From Escherichia virus TH58: a stretch of 64,000 bases of DNA. Made by a program: the position numbers and the translations under genes. The DNA lies in the sequence record MT446423.1, one strand, 5' to 3'. Positions 8,040 to 52,648 of the stretch are shown here, one piece after another (positions within the stretch are counted from its first letter, which is position 1; each line of letters begins with the position of its first letter). The notes under the pieces are model-generated. The model did not search any database and was not told the DNA's origin. It saw only the letters and a list, made by a program, of their open reading frames with translations.

Positions 8040-8050
8040 TAATGTACAAC

Positions 8051-8080
8051 GATAGGAAGATAATAACATGTCTTCCTATC
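8051..8080 (+). other. perfect 10-bp inverted repeat (stem-loop) between genes
   Basis: GATAGGAAGA ..10 nt.. TCTTCCTATC immediately upstream of the RBS of gene 8103; weak T tract. Confidence 0.4.
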
Positions 8081-8102
8081 GTCTTAAAATGAGGAAAATA
8101 TC

Positions 8103-8342: not shown

Positions 8343-8372
8343 TATAACAAACTCTTGAGAGCAGAGTATAAT
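8343..8372 (+). promoter_or_regulatory. early-type promoter (weak -35, -10 TATAAT)
   Basis: aaactcttgagagcagag TATAAT; near-identical copy at 52575-52604. Confidence 0.4.
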
Positions 8373-8411
8373 TCTCTCTCATTGGATAATAAAATAACCG
8401 AGGAAAATAAT

Positions 8412-8968: not shown

Positions 8969-9124
8969 AACCATCTCGAATCACTATAACCGAATAAAAG
9001 TTTAGGTGAATTTTAAGTCGTCAACTTTATGAAAGTTACGTATCTTTGATAGTATCTCGTGCTTTAAGATAGGTCTCTAAATATTATGATATAATAGACC
9101 TATGAATTGAGCTAAGAGGTACTT

Positions 9125-21024: not shown

Positions 21025-22710
21025 ATGAAAAAAGCTGTTATTCTTGGTGCTGGACTGGCAACTCGTTTGTATCCAATAACGCATCATATTCCTAAGGTGC
21101 TTGTTAACTATAAACAAGACACTATTCTGAGCAATTTGTATACAATTTATTCTGACCTTGGCGCAGATGAAATTATTGTAGTAGTTCATTCAAAATTTGC
21201 TGAAACCGTTCGAGCTTATTGTGAGCAAGAAGGGTTCAATGTGACTATTCGTACAGTTGATGAAGCATATGGTTCTGCTTATGCTCTTGCTAAATTGCAC
21301 AAAGATTTAGACGGTCATAATGTAATTGTTAACTGGTGTGATATTATTCCCGATTTTGGTTCATGGTCTTGGAATGTTAACGCAATCTATGTTAAGGGTG
21401 ACGAATGTCGATATAATTTCGACGGTGAAAATATCACTAACGTAGGTTCAACAGGTGGTAATGTTGTAGGAATTTATCAGTTCAAAGACTGGGAATTCTA
21501 TATGGGTTCTACTGATGAGGAAATTCATGAATACTGCAAAGGACGTGATTTCGTAGAATTCCTTTACGGCAGCGCATTCAATAAATCAGAGCTTATGAAT
21601 CTAATTGATTTAGGTGATATGCCTAAACTTGAAAAGGCTCATGAAGTTCGTGAACTTAATCGTAGTTTTAATGCGGTTGAAATTGGTGAAGAAACTGTAA
21701 CTAAATTCGCATTAACCGAACAGGGCCGATCTCTTCAGAAAGATGAGATTTCATGGTATCTTAAAGTGAAATCAGATTCAGTTCCTCAGTTAGTTTCTGT
21801 TAATGAAAATAACTTTGAAATGGAACGCATTAAAGGTAAGCCGGCATTTGAATATATTAAATCCAAATCGAGTCTTGCTCGTCCACAAATTGTTGATGCA
21901 ATTTTAGATGCACTGAAATTCAGCACAGACACTTATTTTGTAAGTCCTGAAACTGTTCGTCGTGATTTCACTAAAGAATTCTATACTAAAGTCATCGATC
22001 GTTGTGAAAGTATTCAACCATTGATTGATTCATTTGGTAAAATCACACATGTGAACTACACTAAGATTGGACGTCTGAAGCCAATGTTGAAACAAGCTTT
22101 AGAACACCTTATTCGTTATCATAACCGTTCTCAGGGACAGTACTCTGTTATTCATGGTGACCCGAACTTCAGTAATACTATGATTACTGATAATGGTGAA
22201 GTAAAGTTTATCGACCCTCGTGGATATTTTGGTGAAACCAAGATTTACGGGCCAAAATTGTATGACGAAGCTAAAGTGCTTTACGCTGTTTCAGGTTATG
22301 ATGAATTCAACGCCAATCCGACCTGGGGACAGTTTACTATTGATGAAATAACCTGTAATGTGACTATTAACATCAATCCATTAGTTTACAAATATGGAAA
22401 GATGAGTTCGTTTAACGTGTATCATCATTTGGCAGTGGCAATTATCTGGATTGCATTAGGTGGTTATTTCAAGAATAATCCACTTAAAGCGGTAGCCGCA
22501 TATTATAAAGGTATGGAACTTCTGACTAAGCAATTACGTAACATGGGCCGTGTACTTCAGGACGGCACTATTAGTTATGATGTAGCAGAACCTGTAACGG
22601 CTACTCTGATTACAAAAAATCCTGGTAAATGGGTACTAACTGATAAAGAAACTGGTGTTTCTTATCGTCCAATCGGTGGCGATAACACTCATCAATGGGA
22701 ACGAATCTAA
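21025..22710 (+). CDS. bifunctional sugar-1-phosphate nucleotidyltransferase / sugar kinase (561 aa)
   Basis: N-terminal GAGLATRL nucleotidyltransferase signature; C-terminal choline-kinase/APH-like kinase fold with HGDPNFSN catalytic loop and FIDPRGYF. Confidence 0.75.
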   Translation: MKKAVILGAGLATRLYPITHHIPKVLVNYKQDTILSNLYTIYSDLGADEIIVVVHSKFAETVRAYCEQEGFNVTIRTVDEAYGSAYALAKLHKDLDGHNVIVNWCDIIPDFGSWSWNVNAIYVKGDECRYNFDGENITNVGSTGGNVVGIYQFKDWEFYMGSTDEEIHEYCKGRDFVEFLYGSAFNKSELMNLIDLGDMPKLEKAHEVRELNRSFNAVEIGEETVTKFALTEQGRSLQKDEISWYLKVKSDSVPQLVSVNENNFEMERIKGKPAFEYIKSKSSLARPQIVDAILDALKFSTDTYFVSPETVRRDFTKEFYTKVIDRCESIQPLIDSFGKITHVNYTKIGRLKPMLKQALEHLIRYHNRSQGQYSVIHGDPNFSNTMITDNGEVKFIDPRGYFGETKIYGPKLYDEAKVLYAVSGYDEFNANPTWGQFTIDEITCNVTININPLVYKYGKMSSFNVYHHLAVAIIWIALGGYFKNNPLKAVAAYYKGMELLTKQLRNMGRVLQDGTISYDVAEPVTATLITKNPGKWVLTDKETGVSYRPIGGDNTHQWERI

Positions 22711-31363: not shown

Positions 31364-31393
31364 TGTTTACATTATAGATGGACTATGGTATAG
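31364..31393 (+). promoter_or_regulatory. early promoter (-35 GTTTAC, -10 TATAGT)
   Basis: GTTTAC, about 18-nt spacer, TATAGT then AGTCCTATC. Confidence 0.5.
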
Positions 31394-31423
31394 TAGTCCT
31401 ATCAAATCAACTAAGGAGTTAAA

Positions 31424-41593: not shown

Positions 41594-41623
41594 GTTTACA
41601 ACCAAGGATGGTTGGAGTATAAT
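41594..41623 (+). promoter_or_regulatory. early promoter (-35 GTTTAC, -10 TATAAT)
   Basis: GTTTAC-aaccaaggatggttggag-TATAAT; near-duplicate of promoter at 42151. Confidence 0.55.
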
Positions 41624-44020: not shown

Positions 44021-44446
44021 ATGGCTTTTAAAGGTTTTGAAGTTGGTAAGAAATATCGTATTATCAAAGGACAGGAAGATAATTTCTTGAGACTTCTTAA
44101 TACGACTGGTAAACGTCTTAATACTAATCTGCATACTACTTTATTGTCCAAAGATTTTATTGTGGAAAAGATGATTGGTTACGGTGTTTCTGTGATTGCT
44201 GTAGAAGCCGTAGGCGATTATGGCCGAACTATTCATAGTATGCAAGGTGATATTCTGCTTTATGGTGCAGAATTTAAATTCTTTGAAGAAGTTCCGGAAC
44301 CAGATACAGCTGTCGATTTCAAAAAAGGCTCTGTAGAATTTGTTGATGGTTCGGTGATCGTATCAGGTGATGTGGTCATTACAGTTAAAAGTGAACAAGG
44401 GCGTTTGGCTGCAATTGATGCACTTCAGAAAATTAAATTTAAATAA
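44021..44446 (+). CDS. hypothetical protein (141 aa)
   Basis: Track ORF. Confidence 0.5.
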   Translation: MAFKGFEVGKKYRIIKGQEDNFLRLLNTTGKRLNTNLHTTLLSKDFIVEKMIGYGVSVIAVEAVGDYGRTIHSMQGDILLYGAEFKFFEEVPEPDTAVDFKKGSVEFVDGSVIVSGDVVITVKSEQGRLAAIDALQKIKFK

Positions 44447-44468
44447 GGGCTTCGGCCCTTTTTGCTTT
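44445..44468 (+). terminator. rho-independent terminator
   Basis: GGGC-ttcg-GCCC followed by TTTTTGCTTT. Confidence 0.7.
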
Positions 44469-44487
44469 AGATTTCGGATGATAGAAT
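44463..44487 (+). promoter_or_regulatory. putative middle promoter for gene 39
   Basis: MotA-box TGCTTTA overlapping terminator T tract, 12-nt spacer, -10 TAGAAT. Confidence 0.4.
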
Positions 44488-44509: not shown

Positions 44510-46330
44510 ATGATTAAAAATGAAATTAAGGTATTGTCAGACGTAGAACATATTAAGAAACGTAGTGGCATGTATATTGGTTCTTCGGCCAAAGAAGCCC
44601 ACGAGCGTTTTTTGTTTGGTAAATATCAACAAGTTGAATATGTTCCTGGTCTGGTTAAATTAATCGATGAGATTATTGACAACTCGGTTGATGAAGCTAT
44701 TCGTACATCATTTAAGTTTGCAAATAAAATTGATGTGCAAATTAAAAATAATCAAGTTTCTGTTGAAGATAACGGACGTGGTATTCCTCAAGGTTTAGTT
44801 ACCGACCAAACAGGTGAACAAATTCCTGGGCCTGTAGCAGCCTGGACTATTCCAAAGGCTGGCGGTAACTTTGGTGATGACTCTGAACGTAAGACTGGTG
44901 GTATGAATGGCGTCGGTAGTAGTTTAACTAATATCTTCTCTACGTTGTTTACAGGCATCACGTCAGATGGTGAAAATGAAATCACTGTTAACTGTTCAAA
45001 TGGAATGGAAAACAAATCATGGACTTCTAAGAAATCTAAAGGTAAAGGCACTAAAGTAATCTTCACTCCTGATTTCTCTTCATTCGAAGAGCATAATTTA
45101 TCTCAAATTTATTTAGATATTACTTTAGACCGACTTCAAACATTGGCAGTCGTTTATCCTGATATCAAGTTCACATTTAATGGTAAAAAGGTTGATGGTA
45201 ATTTTAAACGATTTGCTAAACAATTTGGCGAAGATAACATCATTCAAGAAAATGATAAAGTCTCTATAGCATTCACAACATCACCAGACGGCTTCCGTCA
45301 TTTAACTTATGTGAATAACATCCATACCAAAAATGGCGGTCATCATGTTGAATGTGTAATGGATGATATCTGCGAACATCTTTTGCCGGGTATTAAAAAG
45401 AAATATAAGGGTATTGAAGTCACTAAAGCTCGTGTTAAAGAATGTCTCACAATGTTGATGTTTATTAGAGACATGAGCAACATGCGTTTTGATTCTCAGA
45501 CTAAAGAACGTTTAACGTCAACGTATGGTGATATTCGTAATCATATCCAATTGGATGCTAAGAAAATTGCTCAGGCACTTCTTAAAAACGAAGCCTTGAT
45601 TATGCCTATTGTTGAAGCAGCATTAGCTCGTAAATTGGCAGCAGAAAAGGCTGCAGAAACTAAAGCAGCTAAAAAGGCAACTAAAGCTAAGGTTCATAAG
45701 CATATTAAAGCTAACCAATGTGGTAAAGATGCAGATACGACATTGTTTTTAACAGAAGGTGATTCGGCAATTGGTTATCTCATTGATGTTCGTGACCGTG
45801 AACTACACGGCGGATTCCCATTACGTGGTAAGGTGATGAATAGCTGGGGTATGTCATATGCTGATATGATGAAGAACAAAGAGCTCTTTGATATCTGTGC
45901 TATCACAGGTCTTATTCTTGGTGAAAAGGCAGAGAATACAAACTATCGTAATATTGCAATTATGACCGATGCCGATCATGACGGTCTTGGAAGTATTTAC
46001 CCGGCTTTGCTTGCTTTCTTTAGTAATTGGCCTGAATTGTTTGAACAAGGACGTATTCGCTTTGTTAAAACACCTGTAATTATTGCACAAATTGGCAAAA
46101 CTCAAAAATGGTTTTATACTGTAGCTGAGTATGAAGAAGCCAAAGATACACTGCCTAAGCATAGTATTCGATACATCAAGGGATTGGGCTCACTTCAGCG
46201 GGATGAATATAAAGAAATGATTCAAAACCCTGTGTACGATGTAGTTAAACTTCCTGAAAATTGGAAAGAACTATTTGAAATGCTCATGGGTAACGACCCT
46301 GAACTCCGTAAAGACTGGATGCTTGGTTAA
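44510..46330 (+). CDS. 39: DNA topoisomerase II large subunit (gp39 and gp60 as one continuous ORF)
   Basis: 606 aa; GHKL ATPase (IDNSVDEA), Toprim (LFLTEGDSA, IMTDADHDG); covers both the T4 gp39 and gp60 regions in a single frame. Confidence 0.9.
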   Translation: MIKNEIKVLSDVEHIKKRSGMYIGSSAKEAHERFLFGKYQQVEYVPGLVKLIDEIIDNSVDEAIRTSFKFANKIDVQIKNNQVSVEDNGRGIPQGLVTDQTGEQIPGPVAAWTIPKAGGNFGDDSERKTGGMNGVGSSLTNIFSTLFTGITSDGENEITVNCSNGMENKSWTSKKSKGKGTKVIFTPDFSSFEEHNLSQIYLDITLDRLQTLAVVYPDIKFTFNGKKVDGNFKRFAKQFGEDNIIQENDKVSIAFTTSPDGFRHLTYVNNIHTKNGGHHVECVMDDICEHLLPGIKKKYKGIEVTKARVKECLTMLMFIRDMSNMRFDSQTKERLTSTYGDIRNHIQLDAKKIAQALLKNEALIMPIVEAALARKLAAEKAAETKAAKKATKAKVHKHIKANQCGKDADTTLFLTEGDSAIGYLIDVRDRELHGGFPLRGKVMNSWGMSYADMMKNKELFDICAITGLILGEKAENTNYRNIAIMTDADHDGLGSIYPALLAFFSNWPELFEQGRIRFVKTPVIIAQIGKTQKWFYTVAEYEEAKDTLPKHSIRYIKGLGSLQRDEYKEMIQNPVYDVVKLPENWKELFEMLMGNDPELRKDWMLG

Positions 46331-46344
46331 TTGATAGATGTCCT

Positions 46345-46376
46345 AAGCTCCTGAAGGAGCTTCATTTTAATTTTTA
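46345..46376 (+). terminator. putative terminator
   Basis: AAGCTCC-tgaa-GGAGCTT followed by CATTTTAATTTTT. Confidence 0.5.
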
Positions 46377-46389
46377 ATAAGGCTTAATT

Positions 46390-47490
46390 ATGAAAGTTAT
46401 GTTTATCCCATCTCGTGCGGTCCCATTTAATCCTGACCGTGTACAAGGTGGCCTTGAAGCAGTACATTTAAATGTGTTGAAATATTTAGTTTCTATTGGT
46501 GCTGATATTGATTATATCGGTTTTGATAATGACACGTTTGGTGACTGGAAAGTTACACACCATCCTGTTGGTCATCTGACTAAATTCAGTCTAGGTATGA
46601 GTTATACTATGGCTCGTAAGATTGTTGAACTAGCCGGCATCCATGAATACGATTTTGTTGTTACTATGGAACCGACTAAACTAACCGTTCAGGCAATTAA
46701 AGACGCAGGTCTCTCTAAAGTTCATAAGAATTTTATGGCAACACCATTTGAACCGGTATCTCGTGGCATTGTTCAAATTTGGGACCAGACTATTCAAATT
46801 CATAAGAATGGTGGTAAGAGTTATGCTCCTACTAAAGCCTTCCGTGAATTTGAACGTAAATATTGTTATATGACTTCAGGTCTGACTGACAAAATTGATT
46901 ATGATTATTGGCGAGCAAATCCGTTGTTTGAAGCCGAAGATTATCCGGTTATTTGTTTGAATGAGAAACCTGAAGTTCTTCCGGCGACTGATTTGATTAT
47001 TAGTGCACAACGTTATGACACTAAAATGCGTCGTACTGATGTTGCTCTTGAAGCGATTAAAGCACTAGGCGAAAATGGTGTAGGATATTGTCCAAGCAAA
47101 TGGGCACCACCAGCTAAATATCCTGTTATTATTGATGCTCAACATAGTGAAATCATGGAACGTCTTAAAACAGCTAAAGCACTTATTAATACGTGTCCTG
47201 ACACAGGTACGGTAGAGAATAGTTCTATTGAAGCCATCTCTAAAGGTGTCCCTGTAATCCAGTTAGTTTTTAAGGATTATCCTCATGCGACATTCGAATA
47301 CGACCCAGATACTGTGCGTGTAGAAATTGATTCCTCTACTCCTAAGAAAGAAGTAGTTGCGCTTTACACAAAAGCTGTATTAGAATTCACTGACACATAC
47401 GAAGCTCGAGTTAAACGTGCTGAAGCAGTATGGAAGAAGTATAATCGAGATGCAGTTGTTGCGATGTGGGATAAAATCTTCACAGCGTAA
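46390..47490 (+). CDS. GT-B-fold glycosyltransferase (GT1/GT4-like), 366 aa; second candidate DNA-modifying glycosyltransferase
   Basis: N-terminal MKVMFIPSRAV..GGLEAVHLNV and C-terminal GTVENSSIEAISKGVPVI resemble GT-B donor-binding motifs; absent from T4 at this locus. Confidence 0.6.
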   Translation: MKVMFIPSRAVPFNPDRVQGGLEAVHLNVLKYLVSIGADIDYIGFDNDTFGDWKVTHHPVGHLTKFSLGMSYTMARKIVELAGIHEYDFVVTMEPTKLTVQAIKDAGLSKVHKNFMATPFEPVSRGIVQIWDQTIQIHKNGGKSYAPTKAFREFERKYCYMTSGLTDKIDYDYWRANPLFEAEDYPVICLNEKPEVLPATDLIISAQRYDTKMRRTDVALEAIKALGENGVGYCPSKWAPPAKYPVIIDAQHSEIMERLKTAKALINTCPDTGTVENSSIEAISKGVPVIQLVFKDYPHATFEYDPDTVRVEIDSSTPKKEVVALYTKAVLEFTDTYEARVKRAEAVWKKYNRDAVVAMWDKIFTA

Positions 47491-47506
47491 ATCCTGAATA
47501 GCCTGA

Positions 47507-47557
47507 GGCACTATTACACATAAGATGATAAATTATATGGTCTTTAGTAATAGTGCC
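47507..47557 (+). repeat. perfect 11-bp inverted repeat with 29-nt loop
   Basis: GGCACTATTAC ..29 nt.. GTAATAGTGCC between glycosyltransferase gene and ORF 47583. Confidence 0.5.
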
Positions 47558-47582
47558 CTAGCAATCTACTGAAGAGAATATT

Positions 47583-47783
47583 ATGAGAACGTATAACGTA
47601 GACTTGGAACTTTTTGATAAAGCAGTGCTCCGGGAATTCCGGCTTATCCAAAGATTTTTTGATATCGAATCAGCTGAAGCCTTTAAAGAACGCTTTAAGG
47701 AAATTCGATATAAAATACAAAACGATACAGCTACTAAAGAAGAACTTCTTGAAGTAGCAGAAATTTTTAAACGTAACTTGTGA
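47583..47783 (+). CDS. hypothetical protein (66 aa) upstream of rIIA
   Basis: Track ORF with GAAGAGAA SD. Confidence 0.5.
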   Translation: MRTYNVDLELFDKAVLREFRLIQRFFDIESAEAFKERFKEIRYKIQNDTATKEELLEVAEIFKRNL

Positions 47784-47795
47784 TGAGAGAAAAAT

Positions 47796-50009
47796 ATGAT
47801 TATTGAAACGGCTAAAGAAACGATTATTGGTTCAGGCGGTAAGAGCACAGCATTTACTATTCAAGGCAATAGCAAAGTTTATAAGATTTTGTCTAATGAC
47901 CTTTATACAAACAAAGAATTGGCTTGTGTACGTGAATTAATCACAAACTGTATCGATGGACAAATTCTTAACGGTTGCACTGATAAGTTTATTGTTCAGG
48001 CTCCAGGTCGTTTAGACCCGCGTTTTGTAGTTCGAGACTTTGGTCCTGGTATGAGTGATTTCACCATTCGAGGTAATGACGAAGAGCCAGGAATCTATAA
48101 CTCATATTTTGCTTCAACTAAAACATCGAGTAACGATTTCATTGGTGGATTCGGACTCGGCTCTAAAGCTCCACTAGCATATACCGATACGTTTAACCTT
48201 ACGTCTTATCACAACGGTGAAGTTCGTGGTTATGTAATTTATCAAGATGACAGTGGTCCACAAATTAAGCCAACCTTTGTAGATAAGATGGGCCCTGATG
48301 ACCGGACTGGCGTTGAAGTAGTTGTGCCTGTTAACCCAGAAGATTTTGAAAAGTTCGCATCTGAAATTGCATATGTTATGCGTCCTCTAGGTGATATTGC
48401 AGAAGTTCGTGGTGTTAAAGATATCAAATACTTCCCTGAATTTGACGATGTATATTTGGCCAAGGAAGCTCCATGGGGTGAACGCGGTAATATCATGGCT
48501 GTTTATGGCGGTATTGTATATCCAATCGGAAGTGTTATTAAAGAACAAACGTGGATGATGACGCGATGCACTACAGCTTATATTAAATTCCCTATGGGTG
48601 AACTAGATGTAGCTCCGTCTCGTGAAGCATTGTCATTTGATAAACGTACAGTAGCAAATATCCATAAACGTGTTGCAGAAATCGATGCTAAATTGTTCGC
48701 TGAAGATTCTAAGAAATGGATTGATTGTAAATACCCACGTCATGTGTTCCGTGAAATTGATTCTCTTGGCTATACCGCTCGTAAATACATGGAAAAGGCC
48801 GGGTCTAATATTGAATCACTGAAATACTCTAAAGAACAACTAACTTATTCTGAGTTGTACAAACGTTTTAAAATGGGGCCTGAGTGGTGTAATCTTGGTG
48901 TCGTATACGATATCGTTGAATCCCCTCGTCTTCGTCGTATTCGTGAAAGCGGTAGCTCAACGGCAACCATTTCAATTAACAGTCTGATTGGCATTAACAT
49001 TAAAAATGTTGAAATTGTTATTGACGACGTTAAGGGACGCGTTCCATTAATGCGAGCTCTTAATTCAATTGAAATGTCTAAAGACGAGGTTAAATTAACC
49101 GGTAAAGTTCCACGCGGTTTTGGTAAAAGCGTACTATTCGTTGACCCTACAGACGAAGATGCAATGAAACTTCTGGAACGCCTTAAAGTTATCTTTGATG
49201 GCGACAACATTAACATGTACAAGACTTCAGAGCTTTTACAAATCGTTAAGCCATGGATTGAAGTCAGGAAACGGACTAATGAGCCTCGTCCTAAATCGCC
49301 AAGTGCTCATCGATTCTTTAAGAATGAAAACGATGTTTGGGTATCAGAAGACCTCTTTATTCCGGCAAGTGAAGCAGATGAAATCCAAGGTTATGCTATA
49401 GTTCGTAATCGTTCTAATGCTGAATGTCTTGACGCAGATAAAGGTTGGTTGAACTATGACTCCAATTTCTTAACCCGTATTGCTGATTTGTCAGGTATTA
49501 AAGAGTTCACTGTAGTTCGTCCACAGATTGCTAAGAAAGTTCGTAAACTTGGTGAAGTAGAATGCTTGTTCGAAAAATCAATTAATGACTATATTACGCT
49601 AATCGATAAAGTGGATTATGATGAGTATGTATCACCAAGTCGTAGAGCACAGCCTTATTTGAATCATATTACTCGTAATGAAGAGCTTAACTTCCTTAGT
49701 AAGTATTTTAGCTCTAAGAACAAAGAAATCAGTAAAGACTTTGCAAAGCTCTCAACAGTAAATAATCGTTGGGGATGGAATCGATTCGCAGGTGCTACTA
49801 ATACAGACCTGAATAAGAAGTTAGAATTGTGTGCTAAAATTTTCGATAAGCTTAAAGATAATGCTTACGATAATGATGATAAAATGGTTATTGAATTTGA
49901 AACCAATTATCATATTGTGTCAGAATACATGGGACGACGTGGTACTCTTTCTAAAGAACAGGTCGCTCAAATCGTTAAATTCATGAAGGCCGTGGAAGCG
50001 GCCAAATAA
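47796..50009 (+). CDS. rIIA: rIIA protein
   Basis: 737 aa; N-terminal GHKL-like ATPase region; followed by rIIB as in T4. Confidence 0.9.
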   Translation: MIIETAKETIIGSGGKSTAFTIQGNSKVYKILSNDLYTNKELACVRELITNCIDGQILNGCTDKFIVQAPGRLDPRFVVRDFGPGMSDFTIRGNDEEPGIYNSYFASTKTSSNDFIGGFGLGSKAPLAYTDTFNLTSYHNGEVRGYVIYQDDSGPQIKPTFVDKMGPDDRTGVEVVVPVNPEDFEKFASEIAYVMRPLGDIAEVRGVKDIKYFPEFDDVYLAKEAPWGERGNIMAVYGGIVYPIGSVIKEQTWMMTRCTTAYIKFPMGELDVAPSREALSFDKRTVANIHKRVAEIDAKLFAEDSKKWIDCKYPRHVFREIDSLGYTARKYMEKAGSNIESLKYSKEQLTYSELYKRFKMGPEWCNLGVVYDIVESPRLRRIRESGSSTATISINSLIGINIKNVEIVIDDVKGRVPLMRALNSIEMSKDEVKLTGKVPRGFGKSVLFVDPTDEDAMKLLERLKVIFDGDNINMYKTSELLQIVKPWIEVRKRTNEPRPKSPSAHRFFKNENDVWVSEDLFIPASEADEIQGYAIVRNRSNAECLDADKGWLNYDSNFLTRIADLSGIKEFTVVRPQIAKKVRKLGEVECLFEKSINDYITLIDKVDYDEYVSPSRRAQPYLNHITRNEELNFLSKYFSSKNKEISKDFAKLSTVNNRWGWNRFAGATNTDLNKKLELCAKIFDKLKDNAYDNDDKMVIEFETNYHIVSEYMGRRGTLSKEQVAQIVKFMKAVEAAK

Positions 50010-50018
50010 GGAAACATT

Positions 50019-50966
50019 ATGTACAATATCAAATGCTTGTCCCAAGAAGAACAGTTAGAAGCTTACGGCCTGGTTGAATCAGGCAAATGGACTCGTAAAG
50101 AAATTGCTGATTACTTCGACATTTCAACAGATACTCTTCGTAAGATTGTTAAGAATTTTAAAGCTGAAGGCGTTGTCCCTGAAGCAAACGATGCCTCTTA
50201 TGTAATCGAAGAAGTTCCAGAAAATAATGAACCTATTATTACAGGTCACCGTCCAGAAATAGTATGGAACGCGTCATCTAAATTTATTTCAATCATTGAA
50301 GGACGCGTAGCATACAATGCGACCCCATCAAGTCATGCAAATTTTGAAGAAATTAAAGCTAATTTGGTCGCAGGAAACCTTAGTAAAGCTGTCGAACTTA
50401 TTAACATCAAGAAAGCTATTAGTAAGTTTGTTGACGGTAATGTTGTTATTGAAGGTGGTAGTTTATTTTATCAAGGTATAGAGATTCGTTCTGGTCTGGT
50501 TAATCGTATTATTGATTCTATGGAAAAAGGCGAAGACTTTAAATTCTATCTACCGTTCCTTGAAAACCTGTTAGAAAACCCAAGCGAAAAAGCTGTACAA
50601 CGTTTATTCGACTTCTTGGTTGCAAATGATATTGAAATCACTGAAGATGGGCATTTCTACGCGTGGAAAGTAGTTCGTAAAGATTATTTAGATTGCTATA
50701 GCGGTACATTTGATAACTCACCAGGTAAAGTTGTTTCAATGCCTCGTACTCGTGTTAACGATGATGATACACAAACCTGCTCCCGTGGTCTACATGTTTG
50801 CGCTAAATCGTATATTCGTTACTTTGGTTCTAGCTCAGATAAAGTTGTTAAGGTTAAAGTTCATCCACGTGATGTTGTGTCCATCCCAGTTGACTATGGC
50901 GATGCTAAGATGCGTACTTGTCGTTATGAAGTAATTTCAGACGTTACTGAATTATTTGCAGAATAA
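50019..50966 (+). CDS. rIIB: rIIB protein
   Basis: 315 aa directly downstream of rIIA; T4 size and synteny. Confidence 0.88.
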   Translation: MYNIKCLSQEEQLEAYGLVESGKWTRKEIADYFDISTDTLRKIVKNFKAEGVVPEANDASYVIEEVPENNEPIITGHRPEIVWNASSKFISIIEGRVAYNATPSSHANFEEIKANLVAGNLSKAVELINIKKAISKFVDGNVVIEGGSLFYQGIEIRSGLVNRIIDSMEKGEDFKFYLPFLENLLENPSEKAVQRLFDFLVANDIEITEDGHFYAWKVVRKDYLDCYSGTFDNSPGKVVSMPRTRVNDDDTQTCSRGLHVCAKSYIRYFGSSSDKVVKVKVHPRDVVSIPVDYGDAKMRTCRYEVISDVTELFAE

Positions 50967-50971
50967 TAATT

Positions 50972-50994
50972 GGGGACTTCGGTCCCCTTTTTTT
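50972..50994 (+). terminator. rho-independent terminator
   Basis: GGGGAC-ttcg-GTCCCC followed by seven T. Confidence 0.85.
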
Positions 50995-51008
50995 CTTTAG
51001 GGGTAATT

Positions 51009-51296
51009 ATGATTCATCCATTTGACGTATCAGAATCCAAAATTGCTAATCTTCGTGGTCATCATAAGTGTAAATCAGTTTATTGTGCTAAATTGGTAAA
51101 ACATCCTGGCGATGCACACTACGGTTGGTTAGAATGCGACGAAGTTGTTATTGAAATCCCACCGGTAGATGCAGAATATCTTGAAGAAGGTGACCGCATT
51201 TATTTTGGCGAACTACACATCAGAGGTATCTATGGTAAAGACGAACTTGGGACTGTTGAGACTGAAGAATCTTCCGACATTTATCCTGTCGAATGA
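51009..51296 (+). CDS. hypothetical protein (95 aa)
   Basis: Internal ATG (MIHPFDV) of track ORF 50970-51296; the track start lies inside the terminator. Confidence 0.45.
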   Translation: MIHPFDVSESKIANLRGHHKCKSVYCAKLVKHPGDAHYGWLECDEVVIEIPPVDAEYLEEGDRIYFGELHIRGIYGKDELGTVETEESSDIYPVE

Positions 51297-51312
51297 GTTT
51301 TTGACTAGTGAA

Positions 51313-51789
51313 ATGAAGGTGAAGATTGCTGACACTGCTCGGTATTCCCTGAGCCAAAATCCTGACCAAAACAAAGAAGATGTAGTTCGACGTTGTAAGG
51401 TTGCGGTCTTTGCAGAGTATGTAGTAGCAAATTGGCTAGACGGATATGTTAATAAAGGTATTGAAGATGTAGAAGACCCGTACACGTATGCATGGGACGT
51501 GTTAGCCCATCCCAAATATTGTGGAATTCGTGTAGAAGTCAAGACACACCAGATAGATTCTAAATGGATTTCTGTTACCACAGGATACAGTGGTGATTAT
51601 CCGGGTGGCAACGGAATCAATATAGGGCCCTTCTTGAACCATCGAGTCGCAGATTGCATTATTATATTAGATGTCAAAGAAACCTCACCTGACGTCTTCT
51701 CTTATTCTATAAAGTTCGTGGGAGACCATGAAGACCTAAAGAAAATCGTCCGCAAGAGCAACTACAATGGGTGGTATCTTCAACTTTAA
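51313..51789 (+). CDS. hypothetical protein (158 aa), at the T4 denB position
   Basis: First non-overlapping ATG of track ORF 51169-51789; start uncertain; no endonuclease motif recognised. Confidence 0.4.
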   Translation: MKVKIADTARYSLSQNPDQNKEDVVRRCKVAVFAEYVVANWLDGYVNKGIEDVEDPYTYAWDVLAHPKYCGIRVEVKTHQIDSKWISVTTGYSGDYPGGNGINIGPFLNHRVADCIIILDVKETSPDVFSYSIKFVGDHEDLKKIVRKSNYNGWYLQL

Positions 51790-51801: not shown

Positions 51802-51831
51802 GTTTACAACTAAGTAGGACTATGATATAGT
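51802..51831 (+). promoter_or_regulatory. early promoter (-35 GTTTAC, -10 TATAGT)
   Basis: GTTTAC, 18-nt spacer, TATAGT then AGTCCTATC. Confidence 0.55.
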
Positions 51832-51857
51832 AGTCCTATCTAAAAGAGGATAACATC

Positions 51858-52313: not shown

Positions 52314-52343
52314 GTTTACATCAAGGTAGGATTATGGTATAGT
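52314..52343 (+). promoter_or_regulatory. early promoter (-35 GTTTAC, -10 TATAGT)
   Basis: GTTTAC, 18-nt spacer, TATAGT then AGTCCTAC. Confidence 0.55.
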
Positions 52344-52371
52344 AGTCCTACTGAAACATGAGGAACACAAA

Positions 52372-52574: not shown

Positions 52575-52604
52575 TTGTACAAACTCTTGAGAGCAGAGTA
52601 TAAT
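52575..52604 (+). promoter_or_regulatory. early promoter (-35 TTGTAC, -10 TATAAT) with -10 inside a short hairpin
   Basis: TTGTAC-aaactcttgagagcagag-TATAAT; TGAGAGCA..TGCTCTCA inverted repeat spans the -10; near-identical copy at 8343. Confidence 0.5.
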
Positions 52605-52648
52605 GCTCTCATGGATTACAAAAACATTAATCAATTGAGGAAATTAGC

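Follow-up and report, generated by a model that had tools for sequence, protein, structure and literature searches.

A conserved predicted RNA hairpin between a putative DNA arabinosyltransferase gene and rIIA.1 in Mosigvirus phages

The stretch of DNA analysed here (64,000 nt from Escherichia virus TH58, record MT446423.1; hereafter the window) comes from a Mosigvirus, i.e., an RB69/HX01-like T-even phage, and the 1.7 kb around the site of interest match 163 phage records at 90-99% identity. By the annotation of RB69, the gene order on the + strand is gene 39 (large subunit of topoisomerase II), RB69ORF003c, rIIA.1, rIIA, and rIIB, such that all genes flanking the hairpin described below lie on the + strand (Table 1). 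ORF003c was proposed to be the RB69 arabinosyltransferase (PMC6024577); RB69p003 is listed as a putative "beta-arabinosyltransferase 2" in Table 1 of a 2026 study (PMC13326640), and the BASEL record labels ORF003c likewise. Elsewhere in the window, positions 21025-22710 hold a 561-aa ORF of the size of ORF53_52c homologues (545-573 aa); from this ORF and its neighbours, the main RB69 arabinosylation cluster also appears to be present in this region, in which case the window would contain both the cluster and a separately located transferase.

A gap of 92 nt separates the transferase ORF (46390-47490) from the next ORF (47583-47783). An earlier note on this DNA had described a perfect 11-bp inverted repeat with a 29-nt loop in this gap, between a glycosyltransferase gene and ORF 47583 and upstream of the rIIA region. 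The repeat is an exact match in the sequence and the placement is correct, ORF 47583-47783 being rIIA.1 by the RB69 annotation (several records name this gene "rIIA lysis inhibitor"). The hairpin into which the repeat is predicted to fold begins 11 nt past the stop codon of the transferase gene and ends 8 nt before the Shine-Dalgarno sequence of rIIA.1, and the 20 nt from its end to the rIIA.1 ATG are invariant in 18 sequences. In AV109 (474-704) and AV115 (478-708), rIIA.1 is annotated 30 nt longer, with a GTG start inside the 3' arm of the repeat; this is probably an annotation artefact, since all other records use the ATG.

Table 1. Coordinates of the features at and around the hairpin in the window
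Feature	Position	Strand	Basis or remark
MotA-box middle promoter, TTTGCTTTA-N12-TAGAAT, upstream of gene 39	44463-44487	+	Nearest upstream canonical promoter motif
Sigma-70-like site, TTGGCA-17-TATACT, 10/12	46092-46120		3' end, inside gene 39; generic sigma-70 scan
Weak terminator-like hairpin, AAGCTCCTGAAGGAGCTT + CATTTTAATT	46345-46362	+	Left edge of insert; terminator scan
RB69ORF003c homologue, putative DNA arabinosyltransferase, 366 aa	46390-47490	+	RB69 and BASEL annotation; literature
Full predicted RNA hairpin	47502-47562	+	Folding of window and relatives
Outer stem, 5' half, CCUGA	47502-47506	+	Predicted to pair with 47558-47562
5' arm, GGCACTATTAC	47507-47517	+	Read directly; one variant in 18 relatives
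Upper hairpin	47522-47544	+	Folding
AAGAU/GUCUU helix	47522-47526 with 47540-47544	+	Folding
AUA/UAU helix	47528-47530 with 47536-47538	+	Folding
Apical loop	47531-47535	+	Folding
3' arm, GTAATAGTGCC	47547-47557	+	Read directly; variants in RB69 and ESCO47
Shine-Dalgarno-like GAAGAGA and ATG of rIIA.1	47571-47585	+	Unpaired in MFE structure
rIIA.1, 66 aa	47583-47783	+	RB69 annotation
rIIA	47796-50009	+	Downstream of rIIA.1
Sigma-70-like site upstream of rIIB	49897-49926		Generic sigma-70 scan
rIIB	50019-50966	+	Downstream of rIIA
First strong downstream intrinsic terminator, GGGGACTTCGGTCCCC + TTTTTTT	50972-50987	+	Terminator scan; after rIIB

The two arms, of which the 3' arm is the exact reverse complement of the 5' arm (read directly and found again by search), are parted by a 29-nt spacer (47518-47546). 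Folding places this repeat at the core of a larger predicted hairpin of ~61 nt and ~23 base pairs (4+11+5+3 by segment), which from its base upward consists of an outer stem, a 1x1 A.C mismatch, the 11-bp core stem, a 4x2 internal loop, a 5-bp helix, a 1x1 G.G mismatch, a 3-bp helix, and a 5-nt apical loop. The core stem contains 5 G-C pairs, and the 29-nt "loop" is itself predicted to form a second, AU-rich helix. The version in the window folds at -25.2 kcal/mol (z = -5.8 over 69 nt, against shuffles), the common Mosigvirus variants (9 of 18 aligned sequences) at -27.6 to -28.5 kcal/mol, and the versions in AV109/AV115 and Shf125875, in which the lower stem reaches 16 contiguous pairs, at -35.3 and -35.1 kcal/mol, respectively; across versions, the full structure has z values of -5.2 to -8.6 relative to shuffles. 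In a local-fold scan of the whole window, the hairpin is the most stable + strand fold of all intergenic gaps and about ninth overall, comparably stable folds arising by chance in the G+C-richer coding sequence of the window.

How much weight the repeat itself can bear depends on how often such repeats arise. A search for perfect inverted repeats with arms of 11 bp or longer and loops of 3-40 nt returns 4 loci (6 k-mer hits) in the window, compared to a mean of 1.07 in dinucleotide shuffles, of which 1% reach 6; the class is thus enriched, yet chance alone should produce about one of them in 64 kb, and the match between the arms alone is therefore no proof of function. What goes beyond chance is the self-pairing of the spacer, the additional pairs in the outer flanks, the rank of the fold in stability, and the constraint seen in relatives. 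Other strong folds are present in the window. The most stable local RNA fold (-32.2 kcal/mol) is at 1819-1875 within ORF 1721-2266 and derives from an imperfect inverted repeat (25 nt, gap of 6 nt); the intergenic gap 8040-8102 holds a perfect 12-bp inverted repeat at 8049-8082 (ACGATAGGAAGA ... TCTTCCTATCGT, 10-nt loop) with no T-run after it, i.e., another intergenic hairpin with neither promoter nor U-tract.

Regarding transcription, the early promoters of this phage have the form GTTTACA-N17-TATAGT/TATGAT/TATAAT, and those nearest to the hairpin are at 41595 and 51803; motif scans detected no early, middle, or late promoter motif from the MotA-box promoter upstream of gene 39 (44463-44487) to 51803. 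A generic sigma-70 scan does return the two further sites in Table 1, of which the one at 46092-46120, 270 nt before the transferase start, might serve the cassette as a promoter of its own. The first strong intrinsic terminator downstream follows rIIB and is likely the end of the operon that holds the hairpin. Given the middle promoter upstream, the lack of a canonical promoter motif any nearer, and this terminator at 50972, the hairpin would be internal to a predicted polycistronic message. We found no published transcript maps for Mosigvirus in the literature, and the AV110 preprint inferred early genes from T4 synteny alone.

A promoter at the hairpin itself, on either strand, was rejected, as the gap (47491-47582, scanned for sigma-70 sites; T-even early motif sought as GTTTACA-N17-TATAGT) has no sigma-70-like, T-even early, MotA-box middle, or TATAAATA late motif; a - strand TATAAT lies inside the hairpin loop but is without a usable -35. 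A hairpin masking the rIIA.1 translation-initiation region was likewise rejected, for the hairpin ends at 47562 and the Shine-Dalgarno sequence (~47571-47577) and the AUG (47583) are unpaired in the MFE structure. Like the hairpins of T4 genes e, soc, and 25 (PMC3014915), the element is a conserved RNA structure that immediately precedes a start codon; it differs from them in that its helix includes neither the Shine-Dalgarno sequence nor the AUG of rIIA.1, both of which are predicted to stay unpaired.

The history of the gap is suggested by comparison with other T-even genera. Homology to Tequatrovirus resumes at ~47574, at the rIIA.1 ribosome-binding site and 12 nt past the end of the hairpin, and in phage T2 the gap between gene 39 and rIIA.1 is only 54 nt (1459-1512 of the T2 stretch) and holds a textbook early promoter (GTTTAC...TGGTATAAT) directly upstream of rIIA.1. 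These homology limits and the T2 gap delimit a Mosigvirus-specific insert of 1.2 kb (46331-47573), of which the hairpin is the right-hand end. The insert carries the arabinosyltransferase gene and, judging from this comparison, displaced the early promoter which T2 has in its gap. The slot between gene 39 and rIIA.1 is hyperplastic, its cargo differing among Tequatrovirus, Gaprivervirus, Dhakavirus, Gelderlandvirus, and Mosigvirus; in Gaprivervirus, Dhakavirus, and Gelderlandvirus, small ORFs (one to three) occupy it together with terminator-plus-promoter units. At the Mosigvirus insert's left edge, i.e., at the junction of gene 39 and the transferase gene, phage G2285 annotates a putative terminator at the site of the weak terminator-like hairpin 46345-46362.

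Slots of this kind bring to mind the PeSLs of the T4 group, in which an early sigma-70-type promoter (TTTACW-N17-TAYWAT) is joined to a stem-loop (PMC4122927), and the presence in the window of promoter-in-stem-loop motifs with vaguely similar arms prompted this reading of our site. As in the PeSLs described (PMC2839356, PMC4122927), the hairpin is a stem-loop of a T4-type genome, situated in an intergenic gap of a hyperplastic slot and bordering a gene specific to the lineage, and genuine promoter-in-stem-loop motifs occur in the same window (31366, 41595, 51803, 52315). Unlike a PeSL, it has no TTTACW-N17-TAYWAT (none exists between 41595 and 51803), is unrepeated and single-copy, and possesses a long, AU-rich stem rather than a short G/C one. 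A PeSL or decayed PeSL was thus rejected, there being neither an early promoter nor any sequence shared with other intergenic regions. The promoter-in-stem-loop sites are worth recording in their own right: early promoters lie inside stem-loops, with arms to either side of the -10 box or overlapping it, at 31366-31399, 51803-51840, 52315-52352, and 41595-41623, with further sites at 9051-9124, 8359-8378, and 52590-52609. One example reads TAGGACTA-TGGTAT-AGTAGTCCTA, and together they constitute a PeSL-like family in a Mosigvirus; the two PeSL papers (PMC2839356, PMC4122927) do not cover RB69.

The distribution of the hairpin follows that of the gene beside it. A 73-nt element spanning the hairpin is found once per record in 154 Mosigvirus records at 93-99% identity, and comparison at the junction, as the earlier note had proposed, finds the repeat in 154 of the 154 records that carry this junction. 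Nothing beyond chance-level fragments was detected elsewhere in 50,697 phage records, no match to the element was found in 5,426 E. coli genomes, a search of the window for a second copy returned no significant similarity (chance 9-12-mers only), and loop-anchored scans of metagenomes and viral contigs for divergent copies recovered known variants only. With one copy per genome and no E. coli match, a dispersed repeat, a MITE-like element, and a host REP were each rejected. The transferase is present at 95% identity or more in 155 records, a distribution that matches that of the hairpin; no transferase homologues were found between 99% and 43% identity, and the next ones (~42% identical) belong to Acinetobacter phages, which have them at another locus, with an unrelated tetraloop hairpin after them. 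In Acinetobacter phage Apostate, two tandem transferase paralogues (~42% to ORF003c) are parted at about 2333-2348 by GGAGCCTTCGGGCTCC, a tetraloop hairpin that is likewise without a T-run.

Variation was examined in 18 aligned copies of the hairpin (11 distinct) out of ~154 Mosigvirus genomes. Nineteen of 24 pairs never vary among these copies, all 8 pairs of the upper helices are invariant, and the sole variable position of the upper hairpin is 47531 (A/G), the first nucleotide of the apical loop; with this little variation, covariation does not exceed that of shuffle controls. Most changes in the arms retain or improve pairing in the + strand. In HY126, A->G at 47510 in the 5' arm yields a G.U pair, as does C->T at 47556 in the 3' arm of ESCO47; the A.C mismatch 47506/47558 has been closed independently to A-U in AV109/AV115 and to G-C in Shf125875, with the neighbouring G.U also becoming G-C in AV109/AV115. 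The C->A at 47558 in ESCO47 leaves a mismatch a mismatch, and three changes are located in loops. Pairs are broken by T->C at 47554 in RB69, which interrupts the core stem halfway with an A.C mismatch, and by the window's own G->C at 47562, which weakens the outer stem; perfect pairing is thus not essential. Metagenome contig OCHD01000040.1 is the sole other examined copy with both this G->C at 47562 and an A at 47531.

To place this variation on a scale, 12 genomes chosen by overall identity were compared at the hairpin and at four-fold-degenerate sites in both flanking genes. Variable columns number 7 of 61 in the hairpin and 44 of 107 at the four-fold-degenerate sites (Fisher p=3e-5), i.e., the hairpin varies ~3.5-fold less than its neighbours. 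Across the whole gap, 8 of 92 columns vary (p=9e-8 vs four-fold-degenerate sites), and upon addition of the most divergent hairpins found, the counts become 10/61 vs 48/107 (p=1e-4). These comparisons indicate that the intergenic spacer is under purifying selection. Since loop and flank sequence is also conserved, selection may target sequence as well as structure, and sequence-specific recognition is possible.

This constraint bears directly on whether the hairpin does anything at present. It might instead be a junction relic of cassette insertion, e.g., a donor terminator that has lost its U-tract, with its low variability stemming from the short evolutionary depth of Mosigvirus or from overlapping signals such as the rIIA.1 translation-initiation region. 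The chance expectation of one perfect 11-bp repeat per window fits such a relic, as do the lack of significant covariation (19 of 24 pairs being invariant), the pair-breaking changes borne by RB69 and by the window, the position of the hairpin 12 nt before Tequatrovirus homology resumes, and the 93-99% identity of all known copies. However, a ~3.5-fold deficit of variation relative to adjacent four-fold-degenerate sites in the same genomes is not expected of a neutral relic, most arm changes keep or improve + strand pairing, and the fold lies well outside its shuffles. We therefore consider a functionless relic unlikely. The earlier note had suggested the remnant of a mobile-element boundary, a proposal that proved half right: the hairpin does sit at the right edge of a Mosigvirus-specific insert, but it is single-copy, has neither a partner repeat nor a PeSL-type promoter, and is under a purifying selection that argues against a neutral scar.

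Should the hairpin be functional, it could act as DNA or as RNA. Acting as DNA, it would be a palindromic binding site for a phage or host protein, or else it would mark the cassette boundary as a cruciform or as a hot-spot of recombination. The arms do constitute a perfect palindrome, arm and apical sequences are nearly invariant, the site is an insertion boundary in a slot with different cargo per genus, and an inverted repeat is symmetric by nature, such that the sequence by itself cannot separate a DNA role from an RNA role. Against this, the centres of the half-sites lie 40 bp apart, and a 29-nt spacer disfavours cruciform extrusion. Moreover, the native G.U pairs (47505.47559 and 47526.47540) and those created by the changes in HY126 and ESCO47 are mismatches in DNA and pairs only in + strand RNA, and the + strand fold is more stable than that of the - strand in 11 of 11 distinct variants (mean -28.8 vs -22.8 kcal/mol). 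No second copy is available as a recombination partner, nor does the site coincide with a known T4 origin; a T4-type replication origin was rejected in its own right, given that oriA maps near soc and not 39/rIIA (PMC3016281). A DNA-level role thus seems very improbable, and we infer that RNA, rather than DNA, would be the active form.

As RNA, the hairpin could in principle end, cut, or protect the message. The earlier note held that the site lacks a downstream T tract and is not a typical terminator, and this is borne out: the repeat is followed by CCCTAGCAATCTACTG on the + strand and by CTCAGGCTATTCAGG on the - strand, with no T-run on either, and the terminator scan is silent at the site. 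Nor is the stem of the short, G+C-rich, small-loop kind, consisting instead of an 11-bp core topped by a composite spacer helix. True terminators in the window (44445-44460, 50972-50987) have 6-bp GC-rich stems, UUCG tetraloops, and T-runs; the hairpin shares with T-even intrinsic terminators a position just downstream of a stop codon, and differs from their 6-bp stems, 4-nt loops, and T-runs in its 61-nt composite stem without a T-run. An intrinsic terminator was accordingly rejected.

A less conventional form of termination can still be envisaged, in which the hairpin serves as an attenuator, a pause site, or a factor-dependent terminator that insulates the transferase cassette by reducing read-through into the rII genes, much like the stem-loop half of a PeSL. 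The site belongs to a hyperplastic slot and adjoins the 3' end of an acquired gene, it brackets the cassette together with the weak terminator-like hairpin at 46345-46362, and PeSL stem-loops alone strongly reduced lacZ read-through in RB49/phi1 (PMC2839356). On the other hand, the absence of a U-tract on both strands and the silent terminator scan weigh against this role, as does the contrast with the window's real terminators at 44445 and 50972. Efficient termination would also starve rIIA.1 and rIIA of transcripts, no promoter motif being present between the hairpin and these genes. Attenuation is for us a rather improbable function, and less likely than a post-transcriptional one.

Among post-transcriptional roles, the RegB-type site suggested by the earlier note is excluded. 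RegB cuts GGAG/GGAU, usually in a Shine-Dalgarno sequence, according to the RegB passages of a review on T4 post-transcriptional control (PMC3014915), and neither GGAG nor GGAU is present in 47491-47582; indeed, the + strand has no GGAG from 46360 to 51721. Taken as a whole, then, the earlier interpretation is partly supported: a hairpin-forming repeat that is not a typical terminator stands, the RegB component falls, the mobile-element component survives in half, and the RNase III site and protein-binding site that the note also proposed stay candidates.

More difficult to dismiss is cleavage by a double-strand-specific enzyme. The RNase III sites of T7 early mRNA have a general architecture of a ~two-turn helix interrupted by an internal loop. 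Were host RNase III or a phage factor to cut the ~23-bp helix at its internal loop, it would part the 39/transferase message from that of rIIA.1-rIIA-rIIB. The predicted helix is ~two turns long, broken by a 4x2 internal loop as well as two 1x1 mismatches, and fits the ~20 bp or more of double-stranded RNA typical of such a substrate, and the element is intercistronic, inside a long transcript, and conserved under constraint. It thus resembles T7 R1.1-type sites as a predicted intercistronic hairpin of about two turns, with an internal loop, in a long early transcript; the likeness is one of predicted structure, without sequence homology or an Rfam match (best overlapping match 15.6 bits against a gathering threshold of 82, E = 8.6). 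That two lineages extend the lower stem to 16 perfect pairs while RB69 opens it shows that both are tolerated and carries little weight either way. RNase III itself has 0 occurrences in the T4 post-transcriptional review (PMC3014915), whose passages on the nucleases acting on T-even mRNA cite other enzymes. On balance, RNase III-type processing appears unlikely, if somewhat less so than attenuation.

What those passages of the review do document for T4 mRNA is the action of RNase E and of the 3' exonucleases RNase II, RNase R, and PNPase, with T-even mRNA turnover driven by RNase E, RegB, and 3' exonucleases (PMC3014915). These known T-even nucleases, considered alongside an intercistronic helix without a U-tract, lead us to favour a decay barrier or processing boundary over the other readings. 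We thus tentatively propose, as a possibility that retains considerable doubt, that the element may be a conserved intercistronic RNA hairpin of the sense strand that serves as an mRNA stability or processing boundary in the gene 39-to-rIIB transcript.

Stable intercistronic helices without a U-tract are a classical route to differing lifetimes of operon segments, as exemplified by the REP-type stabilisers of E. coli; REP-type intercistronic stem-loops, e.g., that of malE-malF, stabilise the upstream mRNA by acting as a barrier to 3' exonucleases and thereby allow differential expression within an operon. The Mosigvirus hairpin is similarly a stable imperfect palindrome without a U-tract, located between cistrons and shortly after a stop codon. 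The likeness is by predicted structure alone, for the hairpin has no REP sequence and no E. coli match, is single-copy rather than dispersed, and is longer (~23 pairs) with an internal loop.

Under our proposed stability boundary, the hairpin would sit between cistrons of one long early/middle transcript encompassing gene 39, the arabinosyltransferase gene, rIIA.1, rIIA, and rIIB, as part of an acquired 1.2-kb segment that would have replaced the early promoter upstream of rIIA.1. It would act post-transcriptionally as a segmental boundary for mRNA stability and processing. Following endonuclease cuts downstream, 3'-to-5' exonucleases entering the message would be blocked at the hairpin, thus protecting the 39/transferase part. 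The rIIA.1 ribosome-binding site, 8 nt further on, would in turn stay free of structure, with a stable helix on its 5' side. Message lifetimes could thereby differ between the acquired gene and the rII genes despite shared promoters.

A more specialised alternative is that the hairpin is a dedicated recognition element, e.g., one at which RNase III or a phage RNA-binding protein specifically cleaves or binds, and that it originated with the displacement of the rIIA.1 early promoter by the arabinosyltransferase cassette. We regard this as rather doubtful; were it true, the hairpin would set the ratio and timing of a DNA-modification enzyme versus the rII proteins from one transcript, and the locus would exemplify a T-even phage re-wiring an operon after gaining a counter-defence gene.

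Ultimately, the element is of a well-known kind, namely an intercistronic mRNA structure, and represents no new class of biology. Should our preferred reading of a stability or processing boundary be correct, it would show how a T-even phage accommodated a horizontally acquired gene for DNA hypermodification (RB69 gp3): the gene would have entered an essential early operon at a point where relatives carry a promoter, and a constrained RNA hairpin, which the cassette either brought along or evolved, would have taken the place of that promoter. This would matter for the engineering of RB69-type phages at this junction and for the expression of ORF003c, because deletion of the spacer may alter the expression of the rII genes or of the transferase.
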